Source of the DNA: a virus
Taxonomy: Duplodnaviria; Heunggongvirae; Uroviricota; Caudoviricetes
DNA length: 6,054 nt
Direction: 5' to 3' (one strand)
Virus record (IMG/VR): IMGVR_UViG_2724679236_000018
Span: 1-6,054 of that record
In this document: positions 1-6,054 of the stretch, one piece after another
How positions within the stretch are numbered: the stretch's first letter is position 1
How the letters are laid out: the number at the start of each line of letters is the position of its first letter
Made by a program: the position numbers and the translations under genes
Notes under the pieces: generated by a model
The model's input: only the letters and a program-made list of their open reading frames with translations
What the model was told of the DNA's origin: nothing
The model's database searches: none

Positions 1-1284
1 TTACTTCTTCGCCTCTGCAACCACTTTGCTACCCACGCCGCGGTTGTTGTACTCCCACATGCGGTTGTAGTTAGTGTCATTCAGATTGCGCTGTACATCG
101 TCGCTATCATCAGCGTTTCCGGTATTACCCGCGAACGGACGATTAGAGATCACCGCATCAGCCCACGGTTTAGCTGTGTTAAAGCCTTCGTTAATGGCGC
201 TATCACGAATCACCACCTGGCCGTTGGTATTGGCATCAACATCCAGCGAGCGACCCAACTGCGCGACGCCATCACCAGAAGCATTAAATCGGCTATTTAC
301 TGCCAGGAAACCGTAATAGATATTAGACAGCGTAGCTGGTGCAAACACATACGCTTCCTGCTGGGTACGGGAGTTCACCACGCGGAATTCAGTATTATCG
401 AACACCACTGCGCCGCGACCAGAAACGATATCCACATCCCCTTCGATGTAGCTGTTAGTCACCAGCGTACGCGGTTGGCGGTTGGTTTCCAGACGGTTTT
501 GCACGCCACTGTTAGTCACAAAGAAAGTATTCTGACGACCCAGAATATTGACGTTATTGATCTGTACTTTATCGCCATCAGTACGCAGAGCTACCGCTGG
601 ATGGTTGCCTGCATCTACGCTATCGCCCAGCGTGTTTTCGATGGTCAGATTTTGCAGTTGCAGGCCATTGTTTTGCGACCAGAAGACCGCAGAACACAGA
701 ACGCCGATACTGTTGCTGCGTTTGCTCTGGCAGCTATCGTACATATACCACGCTGGTTTACCTGGCATATATTTGCCGCGCGGGTTGACGTCATGACGCC
801 AGTCGGCAGGGCTCATGCCGCCATCAAGGGAGAGTCCAATCTTCACATCAATCGGTTTTTCGCCTGTACCATAGACGGTGATTCCACCCGGAGCTGCAGG
901 GACATACACCGTTCCCTGATACTCACCAGGCATCACGGCAATATACTGGCGCTTATTGGTACGCTTGATAATTGCCGCATCTACCGCCGCCTGAATCGTG
1001 GTATGCGTTACGCCTGGAGTACCCGCCGGGCCGACAACAAAGTCAGGTTGTGCAGGCAGGGTAATCGGCGAAGGATTCCACGCCGCAGCACCAGGCGTCA
1101 GGGATGAAAAATAGTGTTGAGCATCGAAATTCTGCGCTTCTTTTGCCGACAGAATCGGGCGAGAAGAAGTACCAGGCGCGGTTTGATCAGAAGGACGTTG
1201 ATCGGGCGGTGTTGAGCTACAGGCGGTCAGCGTCACGCCAAAAGCCAGTGCCAGCGCCAGACGGGAAACTGAAAATGTGTTCAC
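1..1284 (-). CDS. ybhC: YbhC-like outer-membrane lipoprotein (pectinesterase-like / putative acyl-CoA thioesterase family); host gene flanking the prophage
   Basis: Complete 427-aa ORF on the minus strand with stop at 1-3. N-terminus MNTFSVSRLALALAFGVTLTAC is a lipoprotein signal peptide with lipobox LTAC. Body contains pectinesterase-like motifs (HPAVALRTDGDKV, GDVDIVSG). Lying directly beside the lambda attB core matches my recollection of E. coli ybhC. Confidence 0.85.
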   Translation of the reverse strand: MNTFSVSRLALALAFGVTLTACSSTPPDQRPSDQTAPGTSSRPILSAKEAQNFDAQHYFSSLTPGAAAWNPSPITLPAQPDFVVGPAGTPGVTHTTIQAAVDAAIIKRTNKRQYIAVMPGEYQGTVYVPAAPGGITVYGTGEKPIDVKIGLSLDGGMSPADWRHDVNPRGKYMPGKPAWYMYDSCQSKRSNSIGVLCSAVFWSQNNGLQLQNLTIENTLGDSVDAGNHPAVALRTDGDKVQINNVNILGRQNTFFVTNSGVQNRLETNRQPRTLVTNSYIEGDVDIVSGRGAVVFDNTEFRVVNSRTQQEAYVFAPATLSNIYYGFLAVNSRFNASGDGVAQLGRSLDVDANTNGQVVIRDSAINEGFNTAKPWADAVISNRPFAGNTGNADDSDDVQRNLNDTNYNRMWEYNNRGVGSKVVAEAKK

Positions 1285-1315: not shown

Positions 1316-1421
1316 AATCCGTTGAAGCCTGCTTTTTTATACTAAGTTGGCCTTATAAAAAAGCATTACTTATCAATTTGTTGCAACGAACAGGTCACTA
1401 TCAGTCAAAATAAAATCATTA
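1316..1421. other. Prophage attachment site attL (B-O-P'): host B arm, 15-bp lambda common core GCTTTTTTATACTAA at 1331-1345, phage P' arm
   Basis: Exact lambda core GCTTTTTTATACTAA at 1331-1345. Left flank TGAAGCCTG matches the attB B arm and right flank GTTGG...TATAAAAAAGCATT matches the attP P' arm as I recall them. An IHF-like site TATCAATTTGTTG (1371-1383, WATCAANNNNTTR) and three tandem arm-type Int sites (AGGTCACTAT, CAGTCAAAAT, AAATCATTAT, 1392-1421) follow, running into the int stop codon. Confidence 0.9.
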
Positions 1422-2486
1422 TTTGATTTCAATTTTGTCCCACTCCCTGCCTCTGTCATCACGATACTGTGATGCCATGGTGTCCGACTTATGCCCGAGA
1501 AGATGTTGAGCAAACTTATCGCTTATCTGCTTCTCATAGAGTCTTGCAGACAAACTGCGCAACTCGTGAAAGGTAGGCGGAGTCCCTTCGAAGGAAAGAC
1601 CTGATGCTTTTCGTGCGCGCATAAAATACCTTGATACTGTGCCGGATGAAAGCGGTTCACGACGAGTAGATGCAATTATGGTTTCTCCGCCAAGAATCTC
1701 TTTGCATTTATCAAGTGTTTCTTTCATTGATATCCCGAGAGCATCAACATGCAATGTTGTAGGAATGGCAATTTTTACGCCTGTTTTGCTTTGCTCGACA
1801 TAAAGATAGCCATCTACGATATCAGACCACTTCATTTCGCATAAATCACCAACTCGCTGCCCGGTAACAACAGCCAGTTCCATTGCAAGTCTGAGCCAAC
1901 ATGGTGATGATTCTGCTGCTTGATAAATTTTCAGGTATTCGTCAGCCGTAAGTCTTGATCTCCTTACCTCTGATTTTGCTGCGCGAGTGGCGGTGACCGG
2001 GTTTGTCGTTATATGGCCTTCAGCTATAGCCTCTCGGAATGCATCGCTCAGTGTCGATCTGATTAACTTGGCTGATGCCGCCTTACCCTCGTCTATGTAT
2101 CCATTGAGCATTGTCGCAATTTCTTTTGTGGTGATGTCTTCAAGTGGAACATCAGGTAACTCCTTCCTTATTGCTTTAATTTTGCTCATGTAATTTATTA
2201 ATGTCTTCTGCTTGATCCCTCTGCTGGAGAGGATTTTTTCGTAGCGATCAAGCCAAGCATGGAGAGTGATTGAATCAGCGCCTTTAATCCTGCCCAGCAA
2301 TGATTCGTGCCCGCTTTCGGTGAAAAGCTCAATGTTGGTGTGAATTGCTTCGGAAATTGCTACCCTCCTGTCTCTTCCCAGCCCGAACTCTTTTTTCGTC
2401 CTCGGGTCTCTGTAGCAGTAATACCCGTTTCTTTCGTAGAGATTTGGCGGCAGGTCGCGCCGCTTATGGCTTCTCCTTCTTCCCAT
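1419..2486 (-). CDS. int: Lambda-type integrase (tyrosine site-specific recombinase Int)
   Basis: 355-aa ORF beginning MGRRRSHKRRDLPPNLYERNGYYCYRDPRTKKEFGLGRD and ending ...GREWDKIEIK, which matches lambda Int as I recall it. It sits next to attL and overlaps xis by 23 bp as in lambda. Confidence 0.96.
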   Translation of the reverse strand: MGRRRSHKRRDLPPNLYERNGYYCYRDPRTKKEFGLGRDRRVAISEAIHTNIELFTESGHESLLGRIKGADSITLHAWLDRYEKILSSRGIKQKTLINYMSKIKAIRKELPDVPLEDITTKEIATMLNGYIDEGKAASAKLIRSTLSDAFREAIAEGHITTNPVTATRAAKSEVRRSRLTADEYLKIYQAAESSPCWLRLAMELAVVTGQRVGDLCEMKWSDIVDGYLYVEQSKTGVKIAIPTTLHVDALGISMKETLDKCKEILGGETIIASTRREPLSSGTVSRYFMRARKASGLSFEGTPPTFHELRSLSARLYEKQISDKFAQHLLGHKSDTMASQYRDDRGREWDKIEIK

Positions 2487-2682
2487 TTCTGATCCTCTTC
2501 AAAAGACTACCTGTTACTGGTCGATTTAAGTCAACCTTTACCGCTGATTCGTGGAACAGATACTCTCTTCCATCCTTAACCGGAGGAGGGAATATCCTGC
2601 ACTCGCGTACCCATCGACGAACTGTTTCAAGGCTTCTTGGGCGTCGCTGGCGTGCGTTCCACTCCTGAAGTGTCAAGTACAT
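2464..2682 (-). CDS. xis: Lambda-type excisionase Xis
   Basis: 72-aa ORF MYLTLQEWNARQRRPRSLETVRRWVRECRIFPPPVKDGREYLFHESAVKVDLNRP..., which matches lambda Xis as I recall it. Its 3' end overlaps the int start in the classic arrangement. Confidence 0.95.
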   Translation of the reverse strand: MYLTLQEWNARQRRPRSLETVRRWVRECRIFPPPVKDGREYLFHESAVKVDLNRPVTGSLLKRIRNGKKEKP

Positions 2683-2766: not shown

Positions 2767-3390
2767 TTAAAATTCGAATTGTCTCGCCCGAAGGCTTTTC
2801 AACATTGGTCTTGCCCGTTCGAAAACGGCGCTTGTCTGGTCAAGTCGTGTCGCCTCCCTGAGCAGTACATCTCTGTTTTTTGTCACCGTGTAAAAAGTTT
2901 CAAACGCGATGTCATACAGCTTGCTCGCGTATGATGAGTTAAGTTCCTTCATTATCGGGTACAGGCGTTTGCAGGTATCCACTGCTTTTTCCATCTGTAC
3001 CAGCATGTAGCAGAGGAGGATGATTTCCTCGTCTGTGAATTGTTGTAGTGGCTGCATATTGCGATACTTCTTCTCGCATTCGATGAAGTATCGACGTATC
3101 TGGCGGCCTTTTTCGTTGCGCTCAACCATCGCCAGTTCTTTGGCTGTGTCGAGGGTGAGGTGGTAATCCTTGCGGTTGTGACCGCCTCTACCAGAGGTTT
3201 GCTTTCCCAAATTGGAAAGCAAAATATAGTCTTGATTTTCAATGAATTCGTATTCTGAAATGCGATTTGTAATCCATGCCGCAAACACCTTTTTCACGCC
3301 TAAAAAAGCATGCAGATCACGGGCATTACAGAGCAGGGTGGTTTCGTTGGCAATAGTGCCGTTGAATACGGGGATGAGTTGACTGGTCAT
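2767..3390 (-). CDS. Phage antirepressor-like protein with N-terminal AntA-type domain and uncharacterised C-terminal half
   Basis: ORF 2767..3402; I place the start at the second in-frame ATG (3388-3390, MTSQLIPVF...) because GGAGG sits 5 nt upstream of it, while the first ATG (3400-3402) has no SD. The N-terminal ~110 aa carry the motif set I associate with the AntA/AntB antirepressor domain (ARDLHAFLGV, WITNRISEYEFIENQDY, GGHNRKDYHLTLDTAKELAMVERNEKGRQIRRYFIECEKK). The C-terminal ~100 aa have no motif I recognise. Confidence 0.8.
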   Translation of the reverse strand: MTSQLIPVFNGTIANETTLLCNARDLHAFLGVKKVFAAWITNRISEYEFIENQDYILLSNLGKQTSGRGGHNRKDYHLTLDTAKELAMVERNEKGRQIRRYFIECEKKYRNMQPLQQFTDEEIILLCYMLVQMEKAVDTCKRLYPIMKELNSSYASKLYDIAFETFYTVTKNRDVLLREATRLDQTSAVFERARPMLKSLRARQFEF

Positions 3391-3418
3391 GATGACCTCC
3401 ATAGATTTTTAGTTAGCA

Positions 3419-3441
3419 ATCACCAGTTAGTGGCTGGTGAT
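3419..3441. promoter_or_regulatory. Perfect 8-bp inverted repeat ATCACCAG-N7-CTGGTGAT in the leader of the AntA-like gene; candidate operator or leader RNA hairpin
   Basis: Arms 3419-3426 and 3434-3441 are exact reverse complements. The element lies between a TTGACA hexamer (minus strand, plus-strand coordinates 3446-3451) and the RBS of the AntA-like gene (3393-3397). Confidence 0.35.
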
Positions 3442-3609
3442 CGGGTGTCAACTAGAGCATCTATGAAGCTCCGGGCATATTCCCCTTGCAGGTGTTGTAT
3501 TACGCCTCTCCACCCGACCTTTGTACGGATGTGACTATGCCAGATTGCAGGCATAAAAAAGCCGCAAAGCTATCGGGTGCGGAGACCGCATAGATTTTCT
3601 AGTGCGGTC

Positions 3610-3742: not shown

Positions 3743-4027
3743 TTAGCCACGACCTTCCTCCTTTGGCTTGTGAATTTGTATCGTCATGCCGCTTTGAGTG
3801 GTGACTACAATGACAGAACCAGGCTGAAGGCTGTTAAGATTGAATGCTTCGTAAAACGAATCCAATGCCAGTGCTTTTTTATTCTTTCGGTTCCACCAAC
3901 GCCATCCCTTGCTACAGGCTACACTGACAATCCACTGCCCACTCCTGTAAGCCATATAAAACCAGATGAGCAAAACCTGAAGGAAGGCTATCCAGTCAAT
4001 AATCGTATATTTAGCGAAGGAGTCCAT
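3743..4027 (-). CDS. Small predicted membrane protein (94 aa), translationally coupled to the upstream DUF551-like gene
   Basis: Start ATG at 4025-4027 overlaps the TAA stop of the upstream gene (TAATG on the minus strand) and is preceded by GGAGG 7 nt upstream. The longer 119-aa ORF in the track is an upstream extension with no RBS. The protein MDSFAKYTIIDWIAFLQVLLIWFYMAYRSGQW... has one clear hydrophobic helix (about residues 7-27) followed by a basic cluster NRKNKK, suggesting a cytoplasmic C-terminal domain. Confidence 0.65.
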   Translation of the reverse strand: MDSFAKYTIIDWIAFLQVLLIWFYMAYRSGQWIVSVACSKGWRWWNRKNKKALALDSFYEAFNLNSLQPGSVIVVTTQSGMTIQIHKPKEEGRG

Positions 4028-4449
4028 TACTTCACCTCCAGCGGTGGTTCCGGTAGCGGCATCCAGTGTGATGGTATCCACGACGCACCAGGAATTATCC
4101 ACCCATCATTAGCGTCAGGATGCCCAGGGATGTAAGTCGCCCATTTCATTCGCCAGTCACCTCTCCTGTCAAACTCCCTGGCAACAAGAACGGCTGTTTT
4201 GCTATCCGGCATTCGCTCACTACAGCTTATCCAACCATCCGGAATTACCGGAGAGTTGCCAGCCAGCGCGTTCAACTTGTAAGTTTGGCTTACAGGTTCT
4301 GCACTATCAGCTTCTCGCCGCTTCTGTAGCTCTGCTGCCATCGCTCTCACGACTTCAACTGGTGCCCTTGCAGCAAACTCCATGTTGGTGATCAGCTCAT
4401 TAAGATATTGCTCGCTGGGATACTGTTTCTTATTGGTAATGGTGGTCAT
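4027..4449 (-). CDS. Phage protein with C-terminal DUF551-like domain (140 aa)
   Basis: ORF with AAGGA 8 nt upstream of the ATG at 4447-4449. The C-terminal half (DGWISCSERMPDSKTAVLV...WATYIPG...ASWIPSHWMPLPEPP) resembles the conserved motif of DUF551-family prophage proteins as I remember it. The N-terminal ~70 aa are unassigned. Confidence 0.75.
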   Translation of the reverse strand: MTTITNKKQYPSEQYLNELITNMEFAARAPVEVVRAMAAELQKRREADSAEPVSQTYKLNALAGNSPVIPDGWISCSERMPDSKTAVLVAREFDRRGDWRMKWATYIPGHPDANDGWIIPGASWIPSHWMPLPEPPLEVK

Positions 4450-4453
4450 ATCA

Positions 4454-4639
4454 CTATCCTTTAGTGCGCAAGTGGTTTTTCCAGCGGTTTTGCGCCGCGC
4501 TGGGCTTGTTAAGTGAACACATCACAATATCAGCCGTATTTTTGAACAGCCCCATTCTGCGGTTACTGAGTTTTAACCATTGCTGGACGCCGCGAGCATT
4601 TCTACAGGTCAAAAGAATTTTTGCTTTACGGTTTTTCAT
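4454..4639 (-). CDS. Small basic hypothetical protein (61 aa, ORF A), start inside a duplicated boundary cassette
   Basis: ATG at 4637-4639 overlaps the TGA stop of ORF B (ATGA). Its stop at 4454-4456 is 4 nt from the start of the DUF551-like gene. The protein begins MKNRKAKILL..., sharing its first 7 residues with ORF B because of the direct repeat. No family recognised and the SD is weak, so coding status is uncertain. Confidence 0.4.
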   Translation of the reverse strand: MKNRKAKILLTCRNARGVQQWLKLSNRRMGLFKNTADIVMCSLNKPSAAQNRWKNHLRTKG

Positions 4640-4641
4640 CG
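4611..4641. repeat. Direct repeat copy 1 (23-bp exact core TTTTGCTTTACGGTTTTTCATCG at 4619-4641 plus AAAAGAA flank)
   Basis: Identical 23-mer recurs at 4792-4814, 173 bp away, each time with an AAAAGAA flank. On the minus strand it reads CGATGAAAAACCGTAAAGCAAAA and carries a start codon and the first codons of a small ORF. Confidence 0.85.
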
Positions 4642-4812
4642 CACTGCGTACCCCTTCTCTCGTCTGTTACGCGACGCGGTGGTTTTATAGTTAAATGCGA
4701 ATACCACCCTACCAAACATGCCGATCACCGCCCGTTTGTGATTGCTGATTGGTAGCTTCTCGTACCCCGTCGAACGCGATAAAAGAAGTAATTTTGCTTT
4801 ACGGTTTTTCAT
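4636..4812 (-). CDS. Small basic hypothetical protein (58 aa, ORF B), start inside a duplicated boundary cassette
   Basis: Internal ATG at 4810-4812 of the 72-aa track ORF, preceded by AGGAG about 9 nt upstream. It overlaps the last 14 nt of the Ea22-like gene and its TGA stop overlaps the ATG of ORF A. Begins [10 protein letters not shown]...; no family recognised. Confidence 0.4.
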   Translation of the reverse strand: MKNRKAKLLLLSRSTGYEKLPISNHKRAVIGMFGRVVFAFNYKTTASRNRREKGYAVR

Positions 4813-4814
4813 CG
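4781..4814. repeat. Direct repeat copy 2 (23-bp exact core at 4792-4814 plus AAAAGAA flank)
   Basis: Same 23-mer as 4619-4641. Here it spans the TAA stop of the Ea22-like gene (4799-4801) and the ATG of ORF B (4810-4812). Confidence 0.85.
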
Positions 4815-5449
4815 TTTTGCTCTCCTGCGTCTCCTTTGATGCGAATGCCAGCAAGCCAGTTTCTTATGCCGATATATTCAGCGTTCCTGAAACCGCTTTT
4901 TACATATATAAATGGCAAGCGAAGATTGTGACCATTGGCTGCCAGGTAGTTTTTACAACCCTGTTCGGTGAAACTGCAGGTAACGAATTCATCAATATCT
5001 TTCACAGCAACGCGCCGCCATTTTTCTGGTGGCTCTCGAAAGTTTTCGTGAAGTAGTTCGAGACGACGACTTTGGCGTTTATTGGCTTCATTGCCATCTT
5101 CATCAACCCAGACAATCCTGTCATAGTCATAATCAGAATCAACAACGATTTCGCGCTTTTGATACACACAAAACATAGGTTCTGACGTTATTCGATTATC
5201 CTGTGTTCGAATATTTTCACCGATGATGCCAAATGAATCTGGTGCAGATTTTGTCTGCAACTCTGCTATGCGCTTACTCCCATCCGAGATAACACCTTCG
5301 TAATATTCACGCTGCTCGTTGAGTTTTGATTCAAGTTCACCGAACTTACGGACAAGATATTCAGCGTTTGTTTCGTTAACCTTTAAATCTCGGGGGATGT
5401 ATTTACCTTTCAGAAATCCATCCATCTCAATTAGTGTCATTTGTTTCAT
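4799..5449 (-). CDS. ea22: Ea22-like early-left protein (mosaic; conserved central segment, divergent N- and C-termini)
   Basis: The central peptide [25 protein letters not shown] and the C-terminal AGIRIKG match lambda Ea22 segments as I recall them ([34 protein letters not shown]). The track ORF starts at a GTG (5465-5467) with no SD; I prefer the ATG at 5447-5449 ([12 protein letters not shown]...), which has a purine-rich GGAGTGGGAAGAA upstream. The start is uncertain between these two. Confidence 0.75.
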
Positions 5450-5606
5450 TTCTTCCCACTCCGCCACATCGCATTCAGATATTTGTTTTGATTTACTGAA
5501 GGAAAAGAATTTCTCTTAAGCAATTCCTCTCTCGATGGCATTGGCTTTACGCGTTGGCGAATAATCATTTCTGCCGGAAGAATGCCGGGATTGTATGCAA
5601 GTCCTC

Positions 5607-5897
5607 TCATGATTTACTCTCCACGAACTGGTCAATAGCCATGCTAAGTGACACACCTAAAGTATCGATATGCTGCTGAATATCCTGTAGCGTCTGAGCC
5701 TGAGATAACAGGATTTCACGGTTGCATAACTCTTTAACCAGATGCTCAAACTTGCTGTAATAACCGATACGGCTTAGTGTTTCTTTCCCTGCATTCTCGC
5801 CTTCTTTGATAATTCCTCTTTCGCTAAGAATCAGGTCGTGTTTGGTTCCGGTAATAACGTATTTTCCGAGGTCGATGTTTAGCTTCATTGTTTTCAT
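5607..5897 (-). CDS. Hypothetical phage protein (96 aa)
   Basis: Within the 146-aa track ORF the ATG at 5895-5897 ([13 protein letters not shown]...) is the only candidate start with a good SD (GAGGA 7 nt upstream). The 5' extension of the track ORF starts at a TTG without an RBS and overlaps another open frame. No family recognised. Confidence 0.55.
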
Positions 5898-5907
5898 TGT
5901 TAATTCC

Positions 5908-6054
5908 TCAGTCATTACTGATAGCGCCATAGCGTGAGCGGTAATTACGCAGGCGCGGGTCAATTTCAGGGAAGTGGGTATATGTGGCTTTGCGGAATGG
6001 TCGGATTGATGTCTGGTAAATTCGCTCGCGTTCTTCTTTCTCTGCAAGCCATAT
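5908..6054 (-). CDS. 3' end of a hypothetical gene whose start lies beyond the window (partial)
   Basis: A minus-strand frame is open from the window edge to a TGA at 5908-5910, giving ...IWLAEKEERERIYQTSIRPFRKATYTHFPEIDPRLRNYRSRYGAISND. The TGA abuts the SD of the next gene (TGAGGAATTAACAATG), a typical coupled arrangement. Not in the ORF track because it is truncated; no family recognised. Confidence 0.4.
   Translation of the reverse strand: MWLAEKEERERIYQTSIRPFRKATYTHFPEIDPRLRNYRSRYGAISND

Follow-up and report, generated by a model that had tools for sequence, protein, structure and literature searches.

Why should two neighbouring gene boundaries of one prophage carry the same 23 nucleotides? 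In the window (the whole 6,054-nt stretch of DNA analysed here), TTTTGCTTTACGGTTTTTCATCG occurs exactly twice on the plus strand with a spacing of 173 bp, forming a repeat that lengthens to 29 nt at 93% identity, and 0 of 200 shuffled sequences contained even a single copy of it. The first-pass annotation had described this duplicated 23-mer and had noted that each copy, read on the minus strand, supplies the stop codon of an upstream gene together with the start of the next, the two stops being different and in different frames. Exact matching confirms these observations (Table 1): both copies encode the ATG-initiated peptide MKNRKAK, the first seven codons of a small basic ORF, with TAA of the Ea22-like gene at one copy and TGA of ORF1 at the other. 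It had further been suggested that the cassette is either a reused module boundary, at which recombination stacked two unrelated genes, or a repeated regulatory site. We propose instead, with a probability of about 0.85, that the window carries a tandem A-B pair of phrog_1380 paralogs in a lambda-like prophage, and that the repeat is the conserved 5' coding end of these genes, made identical by a swap of the core of the B gene.

Table 1. Coordinates of the repeat, the two small genes and their surroundings in the window
Feature	Position	Strand	Description
ORF1, type A phrog_1380 member	4636..4812	-	58 aa, ends ...GYAVR-stop; ATG at 4812, stop 4636-4638; TGA overlaps ORF2 ATG
ORF2, type B phrog_1380 member	4454..4639	-	61 aa, MKNRKAKILLTCRN...SAAQNRWKNHLRTKG-stop; ATG at 4639, stop 4454-4456
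Cassette copy 1	4619..4641	-	ORF1 stop (TGA), ORF2 ATG and codons 1-7; also the putative core-swap crossover interval; basis: exact match, HSP ends 4639-4641, HSP starts 4614, three-way alignment
Cassette copy 2	4792..4814	-	ORF1 ATG and codons 1-7; TAA of Ea22-like gene at 4799-4801 in another frame
Variable core of ORF2	4502..4613	-	112-nt patch replaced relative to otherwise collinear L004, L035, L041
Ea22-like gene, upstream neighbour	4799..5467	-	222 aa; phrog_3205 (1.7e-49), phrog_614; Pfam Ead_Ea22 weak, 23.1 bits, below cut-off 27
DUF551 gene, downstream neighbour	4027..4449	-	140 aa; PF04448 E 1.1e-20
Conserved upstream junction GGCATTCGCATCAAAGGAGACGCAGGAGAGCAAAACG	4815..4852	-	ORF1 Shine-Dalgarno and shared C-terminal tail of different Ea22-like proteins

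The window carries a lambda-like prophage at the lambda attachment site, with YbhC identified at the equivalog level and the lambda att core at 1331-1345. The paralogs are located in the early-left (exo-xis) operon between the Ea22-like and DUF551 genes; this stretch has been described as varying in the number and kind of its genes, with duplications (PMC8614690). Traits that they share with lambdoid exo-xis accessory genes, such as lambda ea8.5 and orf55, are the operon position between ea22 and xis, early pL transcription, small size and not being known to be essential. The lambda annotation between ea22 and xis includes no phrog_1380 member, and kinship to lambda Orf55, which is also predicted to have a beta3-alpha arrangement, was rejected at an hhalign probability of 1.4%. 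The Ea22-like gene upstream of the pair ends with a TAA that lies 11 nt past the ATG of ORF1. In other loci an unrelated upstream ORF, small and basic, reads the nucleotides of the upstream junction in a different frame (...KKRRRAKR-stop), and ten HSPs terminate at 4852.

The two ORFs are highly basic, as had been stated, with pI values of 11.6 and 11.9 for the 58- and 61-aa products, respectively. Their bodies, wrongly taken to be unrelated, both match the phrog_1380 profile end to end (ORF1 with E 3.9e-22, residues 1-58 on positions 1-60 of the 62 in the profile; ORF2 with E 9.9e-26 over 1-61 of both protein and profile) and align with each other in BLASTP over 52 aa (37% identity, E 4e-7). 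All three family motifs, viz., the N-terminal M-[KN]-N-R-K-A-[KR], the central [ILV]-S-N-[RH]-[RK] and the C-terminal [AS]-[QR]-N-R, are present in both, and in an alignment of 28 diverse phrog_1380 members N3, R4, K5, N26, N51 and R52 are invariant. On the evidence of these sequence similarities, ORF1 and ORF2 are tandem paralogs of one small basic protein family. The AAAAGAA flank, previously listed as a separate element, lies 1 nt from one copy of the 23-mer and 4 nt from the other, and corresponds to homologous Leu-rich codons 8-11 with a one-codon indel.

The family phrog_1380 is annotated as of unknown function in PHROG and could be identified in 144 phage records by tblastn and at 248 matching IMG/VR loci. 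Its members include Min27 gp09, VT2-Sakai H0078 / VT2-Sap08, phiV10 p50 and p51, and Bas106_0023, from which the window ORFs show no difference in kind: they share the length of 58-65 aa, the basic character, the three motifs and, in temperate phages of enterobacteria, the location downstream of an Ea22-like gene; ORF2 stops one codon early. Stx-converting phages and further temperate phages of enterobacteria carry the family widely, although it is uncharacterised and some of its genes lack annotation, as in the reference record of 933W. Pfam, NCBIfam and PADLOC scans found no match to either ORF, and a pattern scan of genome contigs based on the family alignment proved too loose (81 pattern hits, 0 confirmed). 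The longer "homologs" of 78-103 aa do not represent a larger domain: they arise through in-frame extension at the upstream end, through frameshifts or through fusion by deletion.

The 23-bp repeat is the conserved 5' coding end of this one gene family and not a special signal. All 45 exact copies of the 23-mer examined begin a phrog_1380 gene, some of them truncated, which speaks against a free-standing module boundary joined to unrelated genes. Variation in codons 1-7 is purely synonymous (pS 0.26, pN 0), and in 46 of the 47 other tandem pairs the two 21-mers are set apart by 1-3 synonymous sites with no change in the peptide, though the loci were gathered via MKNRKAK or the 23-mer and the constancy of the heptapeptide among them is partly circular. 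This purely synonymous divergence indicates that selection acts on the peptide and not just on the DNA. An independent representative search revealed heptapeptide variants such as MNNRKAK, MKNRKAR and MRNRKVK, and a literature search gave no paper containing MKNRKAK. The nucleotides of the cassette are further constrained by the upstream genes, whose stop codons fall within it in other frames; the overlapping TAA takes its T from CGT, where that T is invariant. Identical 21-mers in both genes occur only in the window among the loci compared.

A survey of 95 non-identical related loci comprised 46 solo genes, 48 pairs and one triple, and every pair consists of an A gene of 58-60 aa followed by a B gene of 61-63 aa with a 4-nt ATGA overlap (48/48). 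The window shows the same arrangement as 47 other loci, with an A gene ending in ...GYAVR whose TGA overlaps, as ATGA, the start of a B gene with a ...QNRWKNH... tail. An A-B architecture found in 48 of 95 loci does not bear out the earlier view that two small genes were stacked ad hoc by recombination. Six combinations of A and B bodies were observed, among which LLLLSR with ILLTCR is unique to the window; neither this combination nor the perfectly identical 5' ends were seen in the other 94 loci or in 5,426 E. coli genomes. The A gene has its own Shine-Dalgarno sequence (AGGAG, 9 nt upstream of the ATG), and the ATGA overlap suggests that the B gene is probably translated via termination-reinitiation coupling.

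The closest relatives of the two halves of the pair point to how the copies became identical. The ORF1 segment (4614-4852) is 97% identical to L003, L004, L019, L022, L023, L031, L035, L037 and L041, and the solo-B loci L053 and L055 match the ORF2 segment (4447-4641) at 95% identity; the nearest relatives of the ORF2 protein are P0001 and P0002, at 95% identity. The flanks of the ORF2 core are collinear with L004 over 4289-4501 at 93% and over 4614-4852 at 97.5%, enclosing a gap that measures 112 nt in the window against 115 nt in L004, and this core is the sole part replaced relative to L004, L035 and L041. Boundaries of high-identity segments against about 125 related loci cluster at 4614 (starts) and 4639-4641 (ends), and a three-way alignment places the crossover inside CGATGAAAAACCGTAA, an interval of 16 nt. 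The junction 4540-4720 is missing from all 5,426 complete E. coli genomes, in which hits to this region start at 4613/4614. Other natural chimeras are P0054 and phiV10 p50. Since the conserved 3' motif and the 5' cassette delimit the patch, the cassette likely served as a recombination arm. The earlier suggestion of recombination at the cassette thus stands with respect to its breakpoints and crossover, whereas the module-boundary reading does not, the cassette being the coding 5' end of a gene family.

In the history that we propose, the B gene exchanged its variable core for that of a different B lineage (ILLTCRN type), with the two conserved gene ends, viz., the SAAQNRWKNH region (3') and the MKNRKAK cassette (5'), acting as exchange arms. 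The ILLTCRN-type lineage happens to share the synonymous codons of the A gene, which leaves letter-for-letter identical copies in the window. The exchange was probably catalysed by a phage single-strand-annealing recombinase. The repeat is an ordinary product of phage gene shuffling, and its apparent oddity is explained by a selected 5' end of a gene family, with the perfect duplication traced to core-swap recombination.

Lambdoid mosaic junctions, as seen by the "linker" idea or by relaxed homologous recombination with Rad52-like recombinases, are similar in that short conserved gene-end sequences coincide with switches of relatedness, and also in patch length and in an identity arm of 23-28 nt near the Red-beta minimal pairing length (PMC3945230). 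Minimal pairing segments are 23-27 bp for Red-beta versus 31-34 bp for RecA (PMC3945230). As at a linker, the breakpoints coincide with the conserved sequence (4614, 4639-4641, the 16-nt crossover interval and the patch at 4502-4613), and the genes that it borders upstream are indeed unrelated to one another and use two frames. Unlike an intergenic linker between unrelated modules, however, the cassette is a selected coding end with a homologous phrog_1380 body downstream of every copy, and it is the variable interior of a single gene that was exchanged. The family offers a clean natural example of within-gene exchange between conserved arms of ~25-55 nt, near the Red-beta minimal pairing length. 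At 16 nt, the mapped crossover interval falls short of the minimal pairing lengths in the literature; either the actual parents had more sequence in common, or microhomology may have mediated the event.

Identical 5' ends could also have been made by a recent tandem duplication or by ongoing gene conversion, without exchange with another phage. The copies are indeed direct repeats lying next to each other, paralogs often undergo gene conversion, and the lower pS at the gene ends is compatible with homogenisation. We nevertheless regard this origin as very improbable, given that orthologs elsewhere are far closer to each gene (A 97%, B 95%) than its neighbour is (37% amino acid identity), that the A and B subtypes are old and widespread, and that the patch boundaries match an exchange with an ILLTCR-type B gene. 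Moreover, the codon variant AAAGCAAAA is already present in both lineages independently and conversion is therefore unnecessary for the identity of the two copies.

A cis-regulatory site repeated in front of small genes and conserved as nucleotide sequence (for example an operator, a translational operator or an RNA-binding site) would fit the exact identity of 23 nt between genes whose bodies share only 37%, as well as the conservation of the upstream stretch ACGCAGGAGArCAAArCG across different upstream genes and two reading frames. The gene ends have also diverged slightly less at synonymous sites (pS 0.26, 0.20) than the core has (0.35-0.45). The regulatory reading, previously offered as an alternative, is nonetheless unsupported and very improbable in our judgement: the copies in 46 of the 47 other pairs vary synonymously around a constant peptide, the interval 4000-5600 contains no promoter-like or terminator-like sites, RNA folding at both junctions is no better than that of shuffled sequence (z 0.15, 0.47), and an Rfam scan found no family at the repeat. 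The upstream conservation can be attributed to the ribosome-binding site together with the overlapping coding frames.

Substitution patterns in the family support translation of the small ORFs in the proposed frame, which the first-pass annotation had considered uncertain. From codon 8 on, this frame has a dN/dS of 0.34, compared with 1.03 and 0.94 when the frame is shifted, the pooled values being drawn from non-independent pairs, and stops interrupt the other five frames in at least 62 of the 68 unique genes. Length differences between members (58-65 aa) preserve the reading frame. The three motif islands have pN/pS values of 0-0.28 and the variable segments 0.64-0.79, where the higher ratios could mean relaxed constraint and where the between-subtype alignment is uncertain. 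That the ORFs are spurious, the Ea22-like/DUF551 interval non-coding or pseudogenic and the repeat a remnant of local duplication is most improbable in the face of this in-frame constraint, the frame-preserving indels, an existing family model of wide spread, the tight gene spacing with ATGA overlaps and a confident AF2 model, even though the proteins are tiny and extremely basic with no Pfam or NCBIfam model, the 933W homolog was left unannotated in RefSeq, and truncated copies are present in L012, L017, L003 and L015.

The AF2 model of ORF2 obtained with the 28-sequence alignment has a pLDDT of 84.9 and consists of a helix (4-12), three strands and a second helix (48-60); an earlier run with 14 sequences was of low confidence (pLDDT 59). 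No significant structural match was found for this predicted alpha-beta3-alpha fold. The dsRBD (alpha-beta-beta-beta-alpha) resembles the model in the order of its secondary-structure elements, in size and in being basic, and significant superposition on solved dsRBDs was not obtained. On inspection, MKNRKAK-ILL-TC does not qualify as a lipoprotein signal or signal peptide, as the hydrophobic stretch spans only 3 residues and the Cys is not conserved.

Our best guess, a tentative one, is that these proteins of ~60 aa with pI near 12 may be early-expressed accessory factors binding nucleic acid or an acidic host target. The conserved A-B coupling, as predicted, and the confident yet unmatched fold speak for including the pair in studies of exo-xis region function. 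A bolder and rather doubtful idea is that phrog_1380 is an unrecognised class of small basic alpha-beta3-alpha proteins acting as an early A/B pair, whose conserved ends would double as functional motifs and as homology arms for swapping a fast-evolving beta-sheet core. If so, the pair would form a system that uses recombination to diversify a surface interacting with the host or with defences.

The 23-mer at the starts of the two small minus-strand genes ORF1 (type A) and ORF2 (type B) is present in two exact copies (4619-4641 and 4792-4814), which a repeat finder lengthens to 29 nt at 93% identity, and none of 200 dinucleotide-preserving shuffles contained even one copy; the repeat is real and not a chance match. 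The two exact copies, the N-terminal heptapeptide MKNRKAK common to both proteins, and the TAA and TGA stops within the cassettes are all as the first-pass annotation described them. The Ea22-like gene crosses the start of ORF1 and reaches its TAA stop 11 nt past the A of the ATG, while the TGA of ORF1 and the ATG of ORF2 overlap as ATGA. At the other end of ORF2, TAG replaces the GAG (Glu) that is followed by TGA in relatives, and the protein is therefore 61 aa and not 62 aa long. The AAAAGAA flank, earlier noted beside each copy, lies 1 nt from one copy of the 23-mer and 4 nt from the other; as this difference of 3 nt equals one codon, the flank simply represents the homologous Leu-rich codons 8-11 (K-LLLLS and K-ILLT).

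Both ORFs match the phage protein family phrog_1380 end to end (E 3.9e-22 for ORF1 and 9.9e-26 for ORF2) and a direct BLASTP alignment covering 52 aa shows 37% identity (E 4e-7). Three islands emerge when 18 or 28 diverse family members are aligned, viz., the N-terminal M-[KN]-N-R-K-A-[KR], the central [ILV]-S-N-[RH]-[RK] and the C-terminal S-A-A-Q-N-R-W-K-N-H, the last of which has A-S-[RQ]-N-R in the A subtype, with N3, R4, K5, N26, N51 and R52 invariant. Thus, the key premise of the first pass, that the two ORF bodies are unrelated, is wrong, and the ORFs are tandem paralogs, two members of a phage gene family that is known but uncharacterised. The annotation of phiV10 already remarks on the likeness of its p50 and p51. 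The family is narrow: a profile search run exhaustively over 1.84 billion cluster representatives yielded just 43 that belong to it, the most distant members beginning with MNNRKAK, MKNRKAR, MRNRKVK and MKNRAAK.

The exact 23-mer occurs in 41 IMG/VR contigs, a peptide-pattern search gave 280 stretches with relatives encoded in 248, and tblastn located the family in 144 phage records. These include 933W, Min27, VT2-Sakai, Stx2 phage 86, phiV10, HK225 and TL-2011b, together with P1-like plasmid prophages (RCS47, D6), Sasha-like Salmonella phages and Bas106, and the products of annotated matches are hypothetical or of unknown function; the heptapeptide found no mention in the literature searched. 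All examined copies of the 23-mer begin a family gene, full or truncated. Among 95 non-identical loci, 46 carry a single copy, 48 a tandem pair and one three copies. Every pair consists of a 58-60 aa A gene with the tail ...GYAVR*, whose TGA overlaps the start ATG of a B gene (61-63 aa) with the tail ...QNRWKNH(LRTKGE)*. Given this constant form, the tandem in the window is the normal architecture of the family and not an ad hoc stacking of two small genes by recombination. In the reference annotation of 933W (NC_000924; related locus L046, 2846-3189), both the family member (3769-3951 of the record) and the basic ORF MRVACIGLL...RRAKR preceding it are missing, and ST933Wp08 has its annotated start at a GTG within the family gene, relatives starting their counterpart of ST933Wp08 at a later ATG (MAIAASYTMHLYCDC...).

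Selection on the small ORFs, a check that the first pass had itself proposed, was assessed in 68 unique full-length members of the family, collected across about 125 related loci. The pooled Nei-Gojobori dN/dS from codon 8 onward is 0.34 in the proposed frame versus 1.03 and 0.94 in the shifted frames, figures that are descriptive, given non-independent pairs and uncertain subtype alignment in the variable parts, though the contrast between frames is still clear. Stops interrupt the other five frames in at least 62 of these 68 genes, and members vary from 58 to 65 aa, no length difference putting the C-terminal motif out of frame with the N-terminal one. The pN/pS, to be read as equally descriptive, is 0.00 in codons 1-7, 0.10 in the SNRR motif, 0.28 in the C-terminal motif and 0.64-0.79 in the two variable segments. 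Premature stops produce truncated copies of 19-20 aa or 50 aa (L012, L017, L003 and L015), so that at least some lysogens can do without the family genes.

While the heptapeptide is constant across the sample, its codons vary (AAA/AAG at 5 and 7, AAC/AAT at 3, GCA/GCT at 6), with a pS of 0.26 in codons 1-7 versus 0.35-0.45 in the core, so it is chiefly the peptide that is under selection. Two nucleotide positions in these codons never vary: the T of CGT, because with the next AA it forms the TAA ending the Ea22-like upstream genes, and the third base of codon 2, because it is a second codon position in the upstream Ea22-like frame. About 20 nt upstream of the ATG are also conserved (ACGCAGGAGArCAAArCG), with an AGGAG ribosome-binding site among them, 9 nt ahead of the ATG. 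That the 23-mer is a repeated cis-regulatory site, the other option raised in the first pass, is unsupported, since sigma-70-like promoters and intrinsic terminators are found on neither strand of 4000-5600, mRNA folding at both junctions is no better than shuffled (z 0.15 and 0.47) and the repeat has no Rfam match; with the synonymous variation added, there is little scope for a cis element beyond an ordinary translation-initiation region. The ~25 nt before the family ATG (4815-4852 in the window, with equivalents in L005-L128) are used in two frames by unrelated upstream genes, of which one encodes the C-terminal tail of Ea22-like proteins and the other the ...AAKKRRRAKR* end of a basic ORF of 51-60 aa (MRVACIGLL...) lying ahead of the family gene in most loci. 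One 17-residue tail is common to different Ea22-like bodies, with a mosaic boundary near 4852.

The perfect repeat arose by core-swap recombination typical of lambdoid mosaicism, an ordinary explanation. Of 47 tandem pairs, the window's alone has identical 21-mers in A and B, the others differing at 1-3 synonymous sites. BLAST of window positions 3900-5599 against all loci places the starts of high-identity segments at 4614 (10 loci) and 4793 (5 loci), and their ends at 4639-4641 (17 loci), 4852 (10), 4449 (10) and 4501 (7). The ORF2 segment 4447-4641 is 95% identical to solo B loci of the ILLTCRN type (L053, L055), 4614-4852 is 97% identical to loci pairing the same A with a MLIAKPG-type B (L003, L004, L019 and others), and in a three-way alignment the switch between the two relatives falls inside CGATGAAAAACCGTAA. 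The flanks are collinear with L004, L035 and L041 (4289-4501, 93% identical; 4614-4852, 97.5% identical), the sole difference between them being 112 nt of ORF2 core (4502-4613) in place of 115 nt in L004. The simplest reading is a patch exchange of the B core, by double crossover or gene conversion, in which the homology arms were the region of the conserved 3' motif (4447-4501, 55 nt) and, on the 5' side, the cassette (4614-4641, 28 nt). As the AAAGCAAAA codon variant was present in both parental lineages beforehand, the swap gave a perfect direct repeat. The segment boundaries, the crossover in CGATGAAAAACCGTAA and the patch thus bear out the earlier suggestion that recombination uses the 23-mer sequence. 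With 28-55 nt, the arms come near the shortest segments reported to pair efficiently with Red-beta (23-27 bp) and RecA (31-34 bp) (PMC3945230). A phage single-strand-annealing recombinase probably catalysed the exchange.

None of the 5,426 complete E. coli genomes contains the junction 4540-4720, their matches starting at 4613/4614, and of six A x B combinations seen, LLLLSR with ILLTCR occurs in the window only. Natural chimeras, such as the family protein P0054 (A body, B tail) and phiV10 p50 (L048, 1822-2004; B body, A tail), show that such exchanges recur. Other fusions join an Ea22 N-terminal fragment in frame to a B gene (P0010, P0039) or the N-terminal half of a B gene to the downstream DUF4014 gene (P0051).

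Both proteins are very basic (pI 11.6 and 11.9; 15 K+R versus 1-2 D+E). AlphaFold2, with the 28-sequence alignment, gives a fairly confident model (mean pLDDT 84.9, pTM 0.56) with predicted helix 4-12, strands 20-23, 28-32 and 38-43, and helix 48-60, in which the conserved NRKAK forms the start of helix 1, the turn joining strands 1 and 2 holds SNRR, and helix 2 opens with SAAQNRWKNH. The order of these elements is like that of the dsRBD, but structural and profile searches lend this no support, as a BFVD structural search returned only a family member and a PDB profile search nothing. Lambda Orf55, also predicted to be beta3-alpha, is unrelated, and PADLOC gave no match. Based on charge, operon position and conserved pairing, we tentatively propose an early-expressed accessory factor whose ligand might be nucleic acid or an acidic protein of the host and which may work as an A/B pair, though this role is rather doubtful.

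Features of the window, with coordinates on the plus strand
Feature	Position	Strand	Remarks
ybhC (E. coli gene)	1-1284	-	NCBIfam equivalog NF007822, 726 bits; window begins inside gene
Lambda attachment core GCTTTTTTATACTAA	1331-1345		between ybhC and integrase gene
Tyrosine integrase	1419-2486	-	355 aa
ORF at xis position	2464-2682	-	72 aa
AntA-like gene	2767-3402	-	last in listed transcription order
sRNA-Xcc1 (RF02221) Rfam match	3431-3519	-	full model, 62.3 bits (gathering score 53), E 7e-10; between AntA-like gene and DUF4752 ORF
DUF4752 ORF	3743-4102	-	between DUF551 and AntA-like genes in transcription order
DUF551 gene	4027-4449	-	next after ORF2 in transcription direction
ORF2	ATG 4639 to TAG 4454-4456	-	61 aa, begins MKNRKAK
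ORF1	ATG 4812 to TGA 4636-4638	-	58 aa, begins MKNRKAK
Ea22-like gene	4799-5467	-	directly before ORF1 in transcription direction
DUF5405 gene	5607-6047	-	first in listed transcription order

The attachment core represents attL, the junction of a lambdoid prophage occupying the lambda attachment site, and, together with ybhC, the integrase and the ORF at the xis position, shows the remainder of the window to be a lambda-like prophage's early-left (exo-xis) arm, its genes lying on the minus strand throughout. In the exo-xis literature, the genes that follow ea22 are described as variable and as lacking characterisation, Stx phages carrying duplications (PMC8614690). Counted from the listed GTG start, the DUF4752 ORF shares 76 nt with the end of the DUF551 gene; its Pfam match starts only at residue 33, and the true start is therefore probably further downstream.
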